A stretch of 32,000 bases of DNA from Candidatus Saccharimonadota bacterium (lineage in GTDB: Bacteria > Pseudomonadota > Gammaproteobacteria > Enterobacterales > Enterobacteriaceae). The notes below the pieces were generated by a model. It did not search any database. It was not told where the DNA came from and saw only the letters and a program-made list of their open reading frames with translations. This document shows, piece by piece, positions 4,103-31,572 of this stretch. How positions within the stretch are numbered: position 1 is the first letter of the stretch; every line of letters starts with the position of its first letter. The DNA lies in the NCBI GenBank assembly GCA_036689235.1, contig CP144769.1:178481-210480 (forward strand), written 5' to 3'. The position numbers and the translations under genes are program-made.

Positions 4103-4732
4103 TTTTATATTTTTTTTTTAAATATTTTTAAATAATTTTAATTAATATAATAATAATTATTTAAATTTAAATAATAAAAACATTTATATAAATAAATTAT
4201 AAGTATAAATTAATAAAATAATATTTTTTATAATAAATAAATTTAATTATAAACAAAATAAAAATATTATAATTTATTATTAATATTATAAATAACAAAT
4301 ATATATTATAATAATTAAAAATATAATAAAATATTATTAAGTAATATATTTATAATTAATATATTTAAATATAATATAAATAATAAATAATTATTAATAA
4401 ATTAAAATAAATATTTAAAATAATATTAATTTTACATAAATATATAATATTTAATAATAAGATAATTAAAATAACATATATATTGAATATATTTTTAAAA
4501 TAATTAAAAAATATTTATATATAAATATAAAATAAAATAAATATAAGTATATAAAATAATTTAATTTAAATAATATAATATAATTTATTTTAAAATATTT
4601 TAAAAATATTTATTAAAATAAATAAAAAACTTAATTAATATATAAAAATTCTTAAATATCAAATAATAATAATATAATTTTAAAATAAATTTAATTTTAT
4701 TTTTTTATAAATAATAAATTATTATATAAAAT
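4103..4732. other. about 630 bp non-coding spacer of nearly pure A/T
   Basis: A hand count finds only about 13 G/C bases in about 630 nt. Stop codons are frequent in all six frames and no ORF-track entry falls here. It is the largest non-coding interval in the window by far; the next largest are under 100 nt, apart from the tatD remnant. Confidence 0.85.
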
Positions 4733-7928: not shown

Positions 7929-9731
7929 ATGAATAAAAAATATATAAGAAATTTTTCAATAATAGCTCATATAGATCATGGAAAATCAACATTATCTGAT
8001 CGTATAATAGAAATATGTACTGGAAAAAAAATAAGTAAAAAAAATTCTAGAATTTTAGATTCAATGGAAATAGAAAAAGAAAAAGGAATAACTATAAAAT
8101 CACAAAGTGTATTATTAAAATATAAATTTAAAAAAAAAATATATAAATTAAATTTAATAGATACACCAGGACATATAGATTTTAATAATGAAGTATCCAG
8201 ATCATTATATATATGTGATGGAGCTTTATTATTAATAGATTCAATAAAAGGTATACAATCACAAACAATAACAAATTATAAAATAGCAAAAAAATTAAAT
8301 ATTAAAATTATACCTATAATAAATAAAATTGATTTATTATATAATGATATAAAAAATATAAAAAATCAAATAAAAAATATATTTAAAATAAAAAAAAAAA
8401 AAATAATTTTGTGTTCAAGTAAAAAAGGAATAGGAATAAAAAATATTATATTAAAAATAATAAAAAATATTCCTTATCCAAAAGGATCTATAAATTTACC
8501 TTTACAAGCAATAATAATAGATTCATATTTTGATAAATATTTAGGAATATTTTTTTTAATTAAAGTTATTAATGGAAATATTAAAAAAAATGATATTATT
8601 AAAATAATAAATTTAGATAATAAAAAATATTATATAAAAACAATACATATATATATACCAAAAAAAAAAAATATAAATATTTTATATTGTGGTGAAATAG
8701 GTTGAGTATCATGTAATATAAAAATAATAAAATATTTTAATCCAATAGGTAAAGTAATAACAGATTATAAAAATAATAATTTAATTAAAATATCTAATTT
8801 TAAAAAAACAAAACCACAATTATATGCTAGTATATATCCTGAAAATAATAAAAATTTTTTATATTTTAAAAAATCAATAGAAAAATTAAGTTTAAATGAT
8901 TATTCTTTTGTTTTTAAACAAGAAAATTCTTATTTATTAGGAAATGGATTTAGATGTGGTTTTTTAGGAATATTACATGTAGAAATTATAAAAGAAAGAT
9001 TAAAAAAAGAATATAATTTAAATATAATAATAACTTCACCATCAATAATTTATAAAATAATAACAAAAAAAAAAAAAATATTATATATAGAAAATCCAAA
9101 TAAATTACCACCAAAAAATGAAATAAAAGAAATACAGGAACAAATATCAATATGTAAAATAATTACACCACAAATATATTGCGGTAAAATAATTAATTTA
9201 TGTATAAATAAAAGAGGTATACAAAAAAAAATAATATATTTTAATAATAATAATGTTTATTTAAAATATGAATTACCTACTAATGAAATAATAACAAATT
9301 TTAGTAATATAATTAAATCAATATCTCAAGGATATGCTTCATTTCAATATAAATTTAAAAAATATAGAAAATCAAATATTGAATTAATAGAATTTTTAAT
9401 AAATAATAATAAATTAGAAGGATTTTCTATATTAATACATAAAAATAAAATAAAAAAATATAGTGAAAATATTATAAATACAATAAAAAAAAATTTAAAT
9501 AAACAACAATTTGAAATTAAAATTCAATCAAAATGTAATAATAAAATTATTTCTTCATGTATAATAAAATCTTTTAGAAAAAATGTAATTTCAAAATGTT
9601 ATGGCGGAGATGTTACAAGAAAAAAAAAATTATTAGAAAAACAAAAAAAAGGTAAAAAAAAATTAAAAAAAATTGGAAATATATTAATATCATCAAAAAT
9701 ATATTTTGAAACAATTAAAAAAAAAATTTAA
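7929..9731 (+). CDS. lepA: translation elongation factor 4 (LepA)
   Basis: IAHIDHGKSTLSDR (G1), DTPGH (G3), NKID (G4), and the LepA-specific C-terminus CYGGDVTRKKKLLEKQKKGKKKLKKIG. Ends at TAA 9729-9731. Confidence 0.94.
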
Positions 9732-27304: not shown

Positions 27305-28636
27305 TTATAAAATTATACCATATAATGAACTATTTTTATTTTTTAATATTTTAATATCTATTATATTACCTATTAAATTATATCTATTACTCTTAAAATA
27401 AACAATTTTATTATTAAAACAACGACCATAATAATAATTATTTCTTTTAGTATAACCTTCTACTAAAACACTTTGAATAGAATTAATCATTTTTTTACTT
27501 CAATATATACAATTTTTATTTAATAAATATTGAATTTTATTCAATCTTTCTTTTTTAATTAATATAGAAACATCATTTTTTATATTATAAGATTTAGTCC
27601 CTTCTCTAGGAGAATAAATAAACGCATAACTAGTATCAAATTTTATTTCTTTAATTAATTTTAAAGTTAAATTAAAATCATAATCATCTTCAGAAGGAAA
27701 ACCAATTATAAAATCAGAACCAAATAACATATTTGGTCTTATATCTAATATTTTATTTATAATATTTTTATAATACTTTATATTATAATTTCTTTTCATA
27801 ATATTTAATATTCTATTAGATCCACTTTGAACAGGTAAATGTAAATAATCAACTATTTTAGGAATATTTTTATAACATAAAATAATATCTTTTTTAAAAT
27901 CTATTGGATGACTACTAATAAATTTTATTCTTTTAATACCTTTAATTTCTGAAATTAAATTTAATAAATAAGAAAAATTACATTTTTTACCATCAGAAAA
28001 ATAACTCAAATAAGAATTTACATTTTGTCCTAATAAATTAACTTCACATATACCATTATAAACTAAATATTTTATTTCAGAAATAATATCCTCAGGAAAA
28101 CGACTTATTTGAGTACCTCTAGTAAAAGGAACAATACAATAAGAACAAAATTTATTACAACCCTCCATAATAGTAACAAAAGTTTTATCTAAAAAATTAC
28201 TATTATTATTAATATGAAAAATATTTTTTTTAAGTTTTTTAGAAAAATTAACATCTAATATTTTTTTTTTATTTTTATAAAAATTATCAATTAAAATAGG
28301 AATATTTTTTATATTTTGAGTACCACAAATAATATCAATTATATTTCATTTATAAAATAATTTATTTTTTTCTTTAGAAGCAATACATCCACAAACAATA
28401 ACAATTAAATTATTATTTTTTTTTTTAATTACTTTAATTTCATTTAAATAAGAATATAATTTATATTCTGCTTTTTTTCTAACAGAACAAGTATTTAAAA
28501 TTATTAAATCTGCATTTAATAAAGAATTAACTAAAAAATATTTTTTTGATGAATTAAATAAATATGAAATAATTTTATTAGAATCATATTTATTCATTTG
28601 ACATCCTCATGTCTTTATATATAAATTTATACACAT
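27305..28636 (-). CDS. miaB: tRNA-i6A37 methylthiotransferase MiaB
   Basis: N-terminus MCINLYIKTWGCQMNKYDS. Radical-SAM cluster CNKFCSYCIVPFTRG. C-terminal TRAM-like segment. Three ORF-track pieces share one frame and are joined by TGA. Total 443 aa. Confidence 0.93.
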
Positions 28637-28666
28637 ATTAAATTAATAAAATAATAATTTTATAAA

Positions 28667-28739
28667 TAGCTATGATGGGTTTTGAACCCATGACCTCAGC
28701 GTTATGAATGCTGTGCTCTACCAACTAAGCTACATAGCT
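28667..28739 (-). tRNA. tRNA with CAU anticodon (elongator Met, or Ile2 if the anticodon is lysidine-modified)
   Basis: The reverse complement AGCTATGTAGCTTAGTTGGTAGAGCACAGCATTCATAACGCTGAGGTCATGGGTTCAAAACCCATCATAGCTA folds as a cloverleaf with anticodon loop TTCATAA. The A1-U72 pair and the absence of a GGG/CCC anticodon stem argue against an initiator tRNA. Confidence 0.85.
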
Positions 28740-28741
28740 TT

Positions 28742-28812
28742 CAGGGATATCAGGATTCGAACCTGAGATCTCGGGATCAAAACCCGATGCCTTACCACTT
28801 GGCTATATCCCA
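28742..28812 (-). tRNA. tRNA-Gln (anticodon UUG)
   Basis: The reverse complement TGGGATATAGCCAAGTGGTAAGGCATCGGGTTTTGATCCCGAGATCTCAGGTTCGAATCCTGATATCCCTG has anticodon stem TCGGG/CCCGA and loop TTTTGAT. It closely resembles E. coli tRNA-Gln. Discriminator G. Confidence 0.88.
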
Positions 28813-28816
28813 ATAT

Positions 28817-28898
28817 TACGGAAGACGAGATTTGAACTCGTAAACAATTAAGTACTAGACTCTAATTCTAGTGCGTTTACCAATTTCGCCACTTCCGC
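28817..28898 (-). tRNA. tRNA-Leu (anticodon UAG)
   Basis: The reverse complement GCGGAAGTGGCGAAATTGGTAAACGCACTAGAATTAGAGTCTAGTACTTAATTGTTTACGAGTTCAAATCTCGTCTTCCGTA has anticodon stem CTAGA/TCTAG, loop ATTAGAG (anticodon TAG) and a long variable arm typical of Leu. Confidence 0.88.
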
Positions 28899-28936
28899 AA
28901 AATTTATATAAAAATAAATATATTATATAATATATC

Positions 28937-29812
28937 ATGAAAAATAAATTATTTTTATATTTATTTAAATATTGTATAAACTTATTTAAAAAAAACAATA
29001 TCTATTATGGTCATAATACATATAATTATTACTCAGAAACAATACATTTAATATATTCAATTTTAAATATTAATATAAATAAAAAATATAATAAAATAAA
29101 AAATATATTTATAAGTAAAAAAAAAAAAAAAAAAATATTAAAACTAGCAAAATTAAGAGTTAAAAAAAGAATACCTATAGCATATTTAACAAAAAAAACA
29201 TGATTTTGTAAAAAAAAAATTTATATAAATAAAAACGTTTTAATTCCAAGATCTCCTATATCAGAAATAATAAATAAAAAATTAATAAAATTAAAAAAAA
29301 AACCAAAACATATTTTAGATTTATGTACAGGAAGTGGGTGTATAGCTATAGCCTGTTCATATTTATATCCTAAATGTAATATAGATGCTTCAGATATATC
29401 AAAAAAAGCTTTAAAGATAACTAAAAAAAATATTTTTTTACATAAAAAGAATAAAAAAATTAAAATAATAAAATCAAATATATATAAAAATATAAAAAAT
29501 AAAAAATATGATTTAATAATATCTAATCCTCCATATTTAAGTAAAAATGAAATAAAATATTTACCTAAAGAATATCATTATGAACCAAAAATAGCATTAA
29601 TAACAAAAAATAATGGATTATATATAATTCAAAAAATAATTAATAAATCATATAATTATTTAAAAAAAAATGGATATTTAATATGTGAAACAGGCCATCA
29701 AAAAAAAAAAATAATAAAAAATAATAAAGGAATAAAATTTAATTGATTTAAATTTAAAAATAAAAATAATAAAGTATTTTATATAAAAAAAAAAAAATTA
29801 AATTTTAAATAA
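28937..29812 (+). CDS. prmB: ribosomal protein L3 N5-glutamine methyltransferase (PrmB/YfcB-like)
   Basis: Collinear with E. coli PrmB: [76 protein letters not shown] (SAM-binding block), DLIISNPPYL (NPPY), YHYEPKIAL, GYLICE. Ends at TAA 29810-29812. Contains an A19 tract. Confidence 0.88.
29117..29135 (+). repeat. A19 homopolymer inside the prmB coding sequence
   Basis: Direct count gives 19 consecutive A bases, read as AAA x6 plus the A of ATA (ISKKKKKKIL). Confidence 0.95.
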
Positions 29813-29829
29813 ATTAATAAAATTATTAT

Positions 29830-30580
29830 AACAAATATTTAATATAAAATTAAAATCTAATTTTTTTAGTAAAAAAACTTTTTTTTTGATTATAAAAATA
29901 ATTTTACTTGAATCATTTTTTTATATCTATAAAGTTTAGGAGTTAAATAAGAAAAATTAGTTTTAAACAATAATTTATCTAAAGAAATATATTTTATAAT
30001 TTTTTGTAAAAAAAAATTATTTTTAAAAGTTATTAAATCTAATAATGAAATATATAAATCTAAAAATTTATATAAAATTTTTTATTTTAATAACTAAAAC
30101 AATATAATACAACACCAAAATTTAAAATATTAAATTTTTTAATTATATTTAAAATATCTAAAAAATATAATATAGAATTTATAATAAATGATTTATTATA
30201 TTTATTTGATAAATATAATTGATTAATAAATATTTCAATTTATTTATTTTTATTAAAATTTTTATTACTAATATATTTATAATTTAAACCACATTTACCT
30301 ATAACTACAATATTTTTAAATAATATAATTTTTTTTTAAACAATATAAATCATCTTTTTTTATAAATTCTATATATAAAGGATAAATTCCATAAGATAAT
30401 TTAATTATATCTTAATTAATATAAGATAACATAAAAAATATATTAAAAAATTTTTAATAATAACAGAAACAAATAATATTTTTTTTTTTTTTTTTTAAAT
30501 AATAAAAAATATTTTATATTTTTAAATGAAAAATGTAAAAAAATTTTATCTATATGATAATGTAAATCAAATAAATATAT
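29830..30580 (-). pseudogene. decayed TatD-family deoxyribonuclease/hydrolase gene (ycfH/tatD-like) downstream of holB
   Basis: The minus-strand conceptual translation spans three frames. It gives IYLFDLHYHID (compare MFLVDSHCHLD), IKLSYGIYPL (compare FSCGVHPL), IVVIGKCGLNYKY (compare VVALGETGLDYYY), IEIFINQLYLSNKYNKSFIINS (compare QESFIHHIQIGRELNKPVIVHTR), FGVVLYCFSY (compare GGVLHCFTE) and KTNFSYLTPK (compare ETDSPYLAPV). The sequence is interrupted by TAA (complement of 30454-56, 30412-14, 30240-42, 30087-89) and TAG (complement of 30060-62). Frameshifts fall at T18 (30479-30496) and T9 (30329-30337). There is no ATG start. The 3' boundary is approximate. Confidence 0.8.
30479..30496. repeat. 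T18 homopolymer (A18 on the tatD-remnant coding strand)
   Basis: Direct count gives 18 consecutive T bases. The reading frame of the tatD remnant changes across this tract. Confidence 0.95.
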
Positions 30581-30585
30581 TTAAA

Positions 30586-31572
30586 TTACTTTTTATTTAA
30601 TTTAATTAATAAAAAATTTATTAAATCATATAACAAAATATCTTTATTTATATTATTAATATTTTTAATAATTGATAAACAAAAAATAATTTTATTTAAA
30701 ATTAAATATATATCATTTATATTTAAAAAACAAATATTTTTATTAAAAAAAATATATATATCTAAATTATATAAATATTTAATAATTTTATATTTATATT
30801 TAATATAATCTAAAAATAAAGTAATTAATATATATAAATTAATTTCTAAATTATCATTATTTATAATTCTTACTATATTATTAATATTAAATTTATTTAA
30901 ATTTAATATTAAATTAATAATTTTTTTTTTAATTAAAATATTTTTTTTAATTCAAATTAAAGAATTAATTGGAGAATTATTACTTAATCTAATACAAGAT
31001 AAAAAAATATTTTTATTAAAATTATTTTTAAATTTATTTAATAATCATTTTAATATAATGTTTTCTTTAGGAAATTTAATTCTTAATAAAAATGATCTAC
31101 TTAATATAGTATTAGGTATAAATATATTATCTGAACAACTAAATATAAAAATAATTTTTCCATTATTTTCTTCTAATATTTTTAATAAAAAATTATTAAC
31201 ATAATAATTATCAAATTTAAAATTATCAAAAAAAATTATTTTAATATCATTAATACTAATATTAATTAATAATTTATTATATATTTTTTTAATTAAATTA
31301 ATATTTATATTATTATTAATATAATAATAATTAAAATAATTTTTATTTTTAAATGAAATACAATTAAAACATTTATTACATGATAAATATTTTTTTTTAT
31401 TTTTACAAAAAATTCATTTTATTAAACAAATTATTAAAATATTAATATTTAAATTACAAGAATATTTAAATATAAAATTAAAAATATTTAATCTATTAAT
31501 ATTTAAAATATTTATTATATAAATATAATTACTTTTAAATCAAGAATAAATAATATTTTTATTAAATAACAT
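30586..31572 (-). CDS. holB: DNA polymerase III subunit delta prime
   Basis: The region is absent from the ORF track because there is no internal Met and TGA codons are present. I checked it triplet by triplet: there is no TAA/TAG from ATG (complement of 31570-72) to TAA (complement of 30586-88). Total 328 aa. Features are a Cys cluster CLIKWIFCKNKKKYLSCNKCFNC (delta-prime zinc module), FLLKILEE (compare LLKTLEEP) and TILSRS (compare the SRC motif). Confidence 0.85.

Follow-up and report, generated by a model that had tools for sequence, protein, structure and literature searches.

The systems closest to the locus described here are Buchnera aphidicola, Blochmannia vafer and the other sequenced members of Stammera. 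In Buchnera, pseudogenes that arise through frameshifts in homopolymers were reported by Moran et al. (2009), as cited in Degnan, Ochman and Moran (2011; PMC3164680), and in Blochmannia vafer the hot spots of insertion and deletion are long homopolymers and short multimeric repeats (Williams and Wernegreen, PMC3268670). For Stammera, a study of 50 genomes documented unidirectional gene loss and high synteny, and its Pseudofinder analysis, which gives counts only, predicted 0-13 pseudogenes per genome (Garcia-Lozano et al., bioRxiv 10.1101/2023.12.12.571295). So far as the text and supplement of that study are searchable, we found no mention of ycfH or tatD in them, and our literature search found no paper that names both Stammera and tatD. 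To that extent, a locus-level decay series for ycfH is absent from Garcia-Lozano et al.

YcfH is a group II (HxH) member of the TatD family of metal-dependent 3'-exonucleases and AP endonucleases, and its gene follows holB in Enterobacterales. The HxH motif defines group II of the family and contributes to metal binding (PMC10085689). The E. coli enzyme acts both as a 3'-exonuclease and as an AP endonuclease and is not essential; even the triple deletion of tatD, yjjV and ycfH is viable and is chiefly sensitive to H2O2 (PMC10085689).

Here we analyse the interval that follows holB in a Stammera chromosome. Positions 29798-30580 on the minus strand are almost certainly a non-functional, nearly full-length ycfH pseudogene, which would have decayed after selection on it lapsed. 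The same syntenic slot in other Stammera genomes holds copies from intact to entirely deleted.

Source of the sequence and comparison set

Stammera is a pectinolytic, extracellular foregut symbiont whose hosts are tortoise and hispine leaf beetles (Cassidinae), and its genomes are among the most AT-rich bacterial genomes known. The window, by which we mean the whole 32,000-nt stretch of DNA that was analysed, has an average G+C content of ~14%. When its MiaB was searched against one genome per species, the 27 closest loci all came from Candidatus Stammera capleta (53-81% identity), and judged by its sequence the window is part of a Candidatus Stammera capleta chromosome (Enterobacterales). Zinderia, a betaproteobacterium to which the low G+C and the reading of UGA as Trp might also point, is thereby rejected as the source. 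These 27 loci, each turned so that miaB lies on the plus strand, form the Stammera comparison set, and L-numbers below refer to them. Genes in the window are continuous only with TGA read as tryptophan, and code 11 splits miaB into three pieces. All translations were made with genetic code 4 (UGA = Trp), the published code of Stammera (Garcia-Lozano et al., bioRxiv 10.1101/2023.12.12.571295). Homopolymers are common throughout: the window contains 67 runs of at least 10 nt, one of which is an in-frame A19 within the intact prmB. The genes around the locus are arranged as follows.

27305-28642, minus strand: miaB
28667-28899, minus strand: tRNA-Met, tRNA-Gln and tRNA-Leu
28937-29812, plus strand: prmB (ribosomal protein L3 glutamine methyltransferase), intact convergent neighbour
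29798-30580, minus strand: ycfH (TatD-family) pseudogene, identified by its PF01026 match, its synteny and 81-87% nucleotide identity to L001-L004
29798-29800, minus strand: ancestral TAA stop of ycfH, still present within the prmB 3' end, at the same place as in L001
30586-31572, minus strand: holB (DNA polymerase III delta'), intact upstream neighbour, 6.5% G+C
from 31665, plus strand: ahpC

The gap between prmB and holB measures 773 nt (29813-30585), and the start site of the dead gene lies 4 nt past the holB stop codon. An earlier note on this DNA had let the gene end at 29830; it runs on to the TAA at 29798-29800 and thereby overlaps prmB. The pseudogene is 783 nt long, its closest intact orthologues 789-795 nt, and it has so far suffered a net loss of 12 nt.

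Identity of the decayed gene

The Pfam model TatD_DNase (PF01026) matches two minus-strand frames of the gap separately, one with 29.3 bits (E 7e-7, profile positions 84-157) and one with 21.4 bits (profile positions 165-216), and finds no match in the plus-strand frames. Joining three minus-strand frames roughly by hand raises the score to 74.5 bits, and the fully frame-corrected translation reaches 91 bits (E 1e-25) over the entire profile (1-253 of 253). With the family model TIGR00010 the window copy scores 98.8 bits, under the 206-bit cut-off, whereas the intact L001 orthologue exceeds that cut-off with 219.7 bits.

Synteny leads to the same gene. An intact ycfH ORF of 254-270 aa occupies the holB-ycfH-prmB slot in 23 of the 27 other Stammera loci, and its products begin with M(Y/F/L)(L/I)(F/I)D(S/T)HCH. 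A tblastn search with the L001 copy recovers all 23 intact orthologues, each in a single frame, and returns from the window five HSPs that switch among three frames. At the nucleotide level, the reverse complement of 29800-30590 is 81-87% identical, with few gaps, to the ycfH of the four closest intact loci (L001-L004). The recognition of a TatD-family gene in the conserved position after holB, made originally by eye, is therefore borne out both by the significant minus-strand profile match and by the syntenic relatives, in which intact copies exist and which make it clear that ycfH and no other gene gave rise to the interval. The motifs named at that time, namely DLHYH, GIYP, GKCGLN, IINSI, LYCF and KTNFS, had also been read correctly and in the right order.

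Within the family, the paralogue can be narrowed down further. The L001 protein aligns with E. coli YcfH (PDB 1YIX) from one end to the other at E 1e-53, its best PDB match, compared with 4.5e-16 for E. coli TatD and 2e-14 for YjjV. PRK10812 is the top paralogue-specific model, yet the score remains under its equivalog cut-off. The gene order tmk-holB-ycfH of E. coli K-12 is also found in Stammera L009. Because the best paralogue match is YcfH and the position is directly after holB, the gene is, by similarity and context, ycfH specifically and not tatD proper.

Lesions in the window copy

Lesions were called from DNA and codon alignments to the four closest intact orthologues, as changes relative to all four. 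They include the loss of the start codon, five frameshifting and two in-frame indels, and several nonsense substitutions, listed here in the direction of transcription (all minus strand; sizes and bases refer to the coding strand).

30578-30580: start codon lost, ATG to ATA
30479-30496: frameshift 1, net -7 nt at an A18 tract
~30445-30451: frameshift 2, -1 nt within the T8 run of the orthologues
30412-30414: nonsense change of Gln59, CAA to TAA, from the frame-corrected alignment
30329-30341: frameshift 3, +1 nt, either A8 to A9 at 30329-30337 or a G gained at 30341
30240-30242: nonsense change of Gln116, CAA to TAA, at a residue invariant in the 23 Stammera orthologues
30087-30089: nonsense change of Ser167, TCT to TAA, from the frame-corrected alignment
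30078-30083: frameshift 4, -1 nt, A5-T-A-T4 to A6-T4
30054-30064 (~30059): in-frame -6 nt between the direct repeats TTTAGA/TTTAGG, two codons of LDLGLY gone
29916-29922: frameshift 5, -1 nt, A8 to A7
29878-29880: in-frame +3 nt at an A run

At the site of the A18 tract the orthologues carry A8 to A14, which code for a run of lysines. The alignment fits both placements of frameshift 3; the simplest is A8 to A9, which restores LYCLKK-IILFKN without a stop. Frameshift 4 is the sole frameshift that lies outside the long homopolymers of the orthologues. After full frame correction three nonsense codons are unambiguous, and the placement of the +1 decides whether there is a fourth. Altogether, the window copy carries at least nine independent disabling lesions of three kinds. 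The tract lengths, that of A18 above all, may be affected by mis-assembly of short reads, and indel sizes at these tracts are less certain than the substitutions.

Several of these features had been anticipated. The absence of an ATG is confirmed by the ATA at the orthologous start, and the two poly(A) tracts to which frameshifts had been assigned are exact in position (on the plus strand, T18 at 30479-30496 and T9 at 30329-30337). The earlier counts have to be revised, to five frameshifts instead of two, and to three certain stops and one alignment-dependent stop instead of at least five; they differ because only some of the shifts had been corrected.

Motif damage and relaxed constraint

The 23 intact Stammera YcfH proteins share 40 invariant residues, of which 15 differ in the window copy: C8Y, H69Y, E98K, D102N, Q116*, P133S, H137N, R139I, H162Y, S185L, P204S, E211K, D213N, P215S and I239V. 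In the TatD family, the Glu of GExGLD, the His of IHxR, the His of HCF and the Asp of ETDxP serve as metal ligands. The corresponding Glu, His, His and Asp of the Stammera motifs GExGLD, IHSR, LHC and ETDSP are invariant in the 23 orthologues, and all four are replaced in the window. The motif sites, placed by alignment on the minus strand, are the following.

30554-30562: HxH motif retained (DLHYH), in which the unchanged His7 and His9 flank C8Y
30294-30296: E98K (GAA to AAA) in the GExGLD motif, with D102N at 30282-30284
30177-30179: H137N in the IIHSR motif, with R139I at 30171-30173
30102-30104: H162Y in the LHC motif
29956-29958: D213N in the ETDSP motif, with E211K at 29962-29964 and P215S at 29950-29952

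Because the open reading frame and four of the six catalytic-motif residues are lost, the window copy, as read from its sequence, cannot be a working member of the TatD family.

The direction of change is strongly biased. Of 54 substitutions specific to the window copy, 33 run from GC to AT and seven from AT to GC. The G+C content of the pseudogene is 8.2% over 29798-30580 (8.5% over the shorter extent assumed in the earlier note), in agreement with the ~8% first counted by hand. The additional claim that this value is intermediate between live genes and an eroded spacer depends on the reference chosen: it is correct beside the 12.5-13.8% of the four closest intact orthologues and the 2.1% of the spacer at 4104-4729, and it fails against the live neighbour holB, which is lower still. 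Comparing the window with the intact copies gives a Nei-Gojobori dN/dS of 0.74-0.97, and comparing intact copies with one another gives 0.36-0.47, although these estimates are crude at ~3% GC3. The contrast is not decisive alone, because the values for the live holB (a 328-codon ORF) are also high (0.56-1.15) and because of the low GC3.

Losses elsewhere in Stammera

A neighbour-joining tree from RpoB, MiaB, PhoH, L1, NusG and MurB (2,833 columns) places the window as sister to L001, L002 and L003, with L004 and then L005 branching outside. Since ycfH is intact in all of L001-L004, this tree position shows, as far as these alignments reach, that the ancestor shared with the closest sampled relatives still had an intact gene, which was then disabled on the window's own branch. 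In four further lineages the slot between holB and prmB no longer contains an intact ycfH.

L024 (CP144843): holB-prmB interval of 720 nt, 94% of full length, 2.8% G+C
L070 (CP144782): AT-rich gap of 290 nt, 3.1% G+C, called a remnant by position alone
L023 (CP043978): holB-prmB interval of 62 nt
L005 (CP043989, the smallest genome): neither ycfH nor prmB left

Between the L024 remnant and the intact ycfH of its sister L027 the identity is 74%, compared with 59.9 +/- 1.4% (maximum 63%) for shuffled sequences. Pfam searches of all frames found no match in the L024 remnant, nor in the window's own spacer at 4104-4732, and both are too eroded for a Pfam signal. For the 290-nt gap of L070, blastn against intact ycfH returned low-complexity matches only, on both strands, and homology is not demonstrable there. 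With L025, L027 and L001-L004 still carrying an intact ycfH, the tree gives at least five apparently independent losses of the gene in Stammera (L024, L070, L023, L005 and the window). The description of the window copy as a rare snapshot of gene death overstates the case, given that four more lineages have a dead ycfH or none at all and that 0-13 pseudogenes are predicted in each published Stammera genome.

The lineages also differ in how far decay has proceeded, and at 2.8% G+C the L024 remnant would already have come to compositional equilibrium. RpoB identity is 86% between L024 and L027, and 83% between the window and L001. Because the L024 remnant has reached spacer composition at 94% of its length despite having the closer sister, we infer that inactivation in the window is comparatively recent and that, in Stammera, compositional erosion runs far ahead of deletion.

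A weak pattern accompanies the loss of ycfH. The chromosomes of all five loss lineages are at most 266 kb, while all 14 genomes of at least 291 kb keep the gene, and rpoB plus miaB G+C is slightly lower in each loss lineage than in its nearest ycfH-retaining sister. That the loss of ycfH, instead of being neutral, tracks, or even feeds, the slide to extreme AT content and a small genome is an idea that we regard as unlikely. The pattern could arise just because genomes that are more eroded have fewer genes left, and a causal link from ycfH loss to the mutation spectrum is speculative.

Alternative readings and the order of events

Two readings would deny that the interval is simply a dead gene. 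The gene might be intact and expressed, its frameshifts being sequencing or assembly errors in homopolymers or being rescued when transcription slips at poly(A) tracts. Long A/T runs do hold four of the five frameshifts, and such runs are typical sites of both assembly error and RNA polymerase slippage; Stammera genomes were built from 150-bp Illumina reads with MEGAHIT (bioRxiv 10.1101/2023.12.12.571295), and slippage rescue has been reported for a Buchnera locus (as cited in PMC3164680). Neither error nor slippage would account for the lesions away from homopolymers, however, which are the change from ATG to ATA, three clean nonsense substitutions and one frameshift outside long runs, or for the alteration of 15 of 40 invariant residues, including E98K, H137N, H162Y and D213N. 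Rescue would moreover demand five slippage corrections and three readthroughs on one transcript, which is not credible, and we consider the probability of this reading to be negligible. Slightly less remote, and still very unlikely, is that the interval has been co-opted as a 3' untranslated region or terminator for the convergent holB and prmB, as a small RNA or as a short ORF. Its position between convergent genes with an overlap into the prmB 3' end, and the retention of nearly all its length (783 of ~795 nt), would be compatible with such a role. Yet Rfam gives no match in 29600-30800 at E up to 1, and within 29813-30585 neither strand holds an ORF of at least 30 aa under code 11 or of at least 70 aa under code 4. 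The interval has shrunk to 62 nt in L023 and 290 nt in L070 with both neighbours intact, which argues that the sequence is dispensable, and the 720 nt kept by L024 at so low a G+C content indicate that retained length reflects slow deletion. No observation speaks against the status of the interval as a pseudogene.

For such a pseudogene the remaining question is what struck first, and it bears on the proposal in the earlier note that homopolymer slippage inactivated the gene. The link between indels and homopolymers is supported. In L001, runs of at least 7 nt make up 6.7% of the bases of ycfH, and just four runs reach 8 nt or more (at gene positions 93, 138, 252 and 673); each of these differs in length in the window, and together they hold four of the five frameshifts (P ~1e-4 if indels fell uniformly). 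The signature of homopolymer slippage in the dead ycfH is therefore, at the level of sequence, real. What does not follow is that slippage was the inactivating event, as the start loss, the three or four stops and the four motif changes coexist with the frameshifts in no recoverable order. A point mutation in the start codon, a nonsense codon or the active site, or relaxed selection itself, could have come first, with the homopolymer indels accumulating later as neutral changes. We hold this to be a serious possibility that falls somewhat short of probable. The number and variety of the disabling lesions, which carry no sequence clue to their order, speak in its favour, as do the excess of substitutions over indels on the window branch (54 versus 7) and the classification of Degnan et al. 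(PMC3164680), under which three or more mutations take a pseudogene out of the 'single homopolymeric frameshift' class. On the other side, 42 of 69 young, lineage-specific pseudogenes of Buchnera with a single lesion arose via homopolymer frameshifts (PMC3164680), a prior that favours an indel as the first hit, and the ancestral ycfH already offered four runs of at least 8 nt, with an A14 in L003.

Proposed course of decay

The history of the locus as a ycfH pseudogene may be reconstructed as follows. E. coli can do without ycfH, as evidently can this sheltered symbiont, and purifying selection would have ceased to maintain the gene. AT-biased point mutation would then have lowered its G+C content from ~13% to 8%, and would have produced TAA stops from CAA and TCT codons as well as the replacements of His by Tyr or Asn, of Glu by Lys and of Asp by Asn. 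Through replication slippage all the long A/T homopolymers, and one short direct repeat, would have altered in length. Further along the same path, other Stammera lineages would have passed to the 720-nt remnant, the 290-nt AT-only gap, the 62-nt gap and the loss together with prmB. The genome-reduction literature predicts that a bottlenecked symbiont sheltered by its host will lose a repair nuclease that is not essential. The locus represents ordinary, well-understood gene decay, either as a fresh instance or as one already tallied, and is probably unannotated.

As a single locus it carries little weight, being a repair-nuclease pseudogene formed as the literature on Buchnera and Blochmannia predicts. 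Its modest value lies in the series: one syntenic slot across Stammera displays every stage of gene death, from an intact gene at 13% G+C through a full-length corpse at 8% and a full-length but unrecognisable remnant at 2.8% to a 290-nt stub, a 62-nt spacer and co-deletion with a neighbour, which makes it an example of teaching quality. Combined with the published dated host phylogeny, the series could yield rates of compositional decay and of deletion, and a half-life for pseudogenes. It could also be used to test whether losing YcfH shifts the mutation spectrum.

Comparison with known systems

Among characterized proteins, E. coli YcfH (1YIX) is the nearest counterpart. The intact Stammera orthologue shares with it the motifs DSHCH, GExGLDY, (I/V)H(S/T)R, LHC and ETDSPYL and the position after holB, whereas the window copy has lost its ORF and four of the six His, Glu and Asp residues of the catalytic motifs.

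The mode of decay resembles that of Buchnera aphidicola, likewise an AT-rich obligate insect symbiont, in which indels in A/T homopolymers disable genes and in which spacers are pseudogenes at different stages of decay (PMC3164680). Repeated independent loss is common to both: Buchnera has lost murF four times and hns three times (PMC3164680), and Stammera has lost ycfH at least five times. The two systems differ in that Stammera is an extracellular foregut symbiont, and in composition, with a pseudogene at 8% G+C and old remnants at 2-3%. Furthermore, the window ycfH belongs to the multi-lesion class of pseudogenes and not to the young class with a single frameshift.

With Blochmannia vafer the locus shares the sites of change, that is, four homopolymer indels and a 6-nt deletion between TTTAG(A/G) direct repeats. 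The indels of Blochmannia vafer are intraspecific polymorphisms and mostly intergenic, whereas those of the window are fixed differences in a former coding region.

Composition, selection and decay around ycfH

The gene adjoining the ycfH pseudogene remains alive at an even more extreme base composition, its G+C being 6.5% versus 8.2% in the pseudogene.

30586-31572, minus strand: holB, an intact 328-codon ORF and live gene

Because chance could not keep so long an ORF clear of TAA/TAG at 6.5% G+C, holB is under selection. A crude estimate of dN/dS against its orthologues gave 0.56-1.15, and at the residue level this selection is apparently no more than weak.

Only one other large non-coding stretch lies within the window.

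4104-4732: non-coding spacer of 629 nt following tRNA-Ser, 2.1% G+C

A search of all six frames of this spacer returned no Pfam signal. The spacer resembles what is left of ycfH in L024, one of the Stammera loci used for comparison, where erosion is complete, and may itself be a gene that died longer ago. The remnants left by ycfH deletion or decay in L024 and in a second Stammera locus, L005, were also observed to contain expanded (TA)n microsatellites.

L005, 9378-9700: (TA)n microsatellite inside the remnant
L024, about 8480-8520: (TA)n microsatellite inside the remnant

Homopolymers in intact genes

Window-wide, 67 A/T homopolymers of at least 10 nt occur in 32 kb, and many of the long tracts lie within intact ORFs, including that of prmB.

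29117-29135: in-frame A19 tract in the intact prmB ORF, encoding a run of Lys

These homopolymers are standing slippage hazards, and transcriptional slippage at them is possible.

Gene content, gene calling and published values

Beyond ycfH, the surroundings of miaB (10 kb on either side) show further differences in gene content when loci L001-L027 and L070 of Stammera are compared. MurB had no match within this interval in L005, L023, L024, L025, L027 and L070, nor had PhoH in L004 and L025. The tmk gene lies upstream of holB in L009 and is absent from the window and L001, where ahpC adjoins holB instead; L005 has lost prmB.

When ORFs were listed under code 11, in-frame TGA codons divided miaB (27305-28642) into three fragments; tools based on that code will under-call genes in the window. 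In the published Stammera pangenome study, the 'AT Content (%)' column of Table S2 holds values of 13.9-20.4 (Garcia-Lozano et al., 10.1101/2023.12.12.571295), which are clearly G+C percentages.
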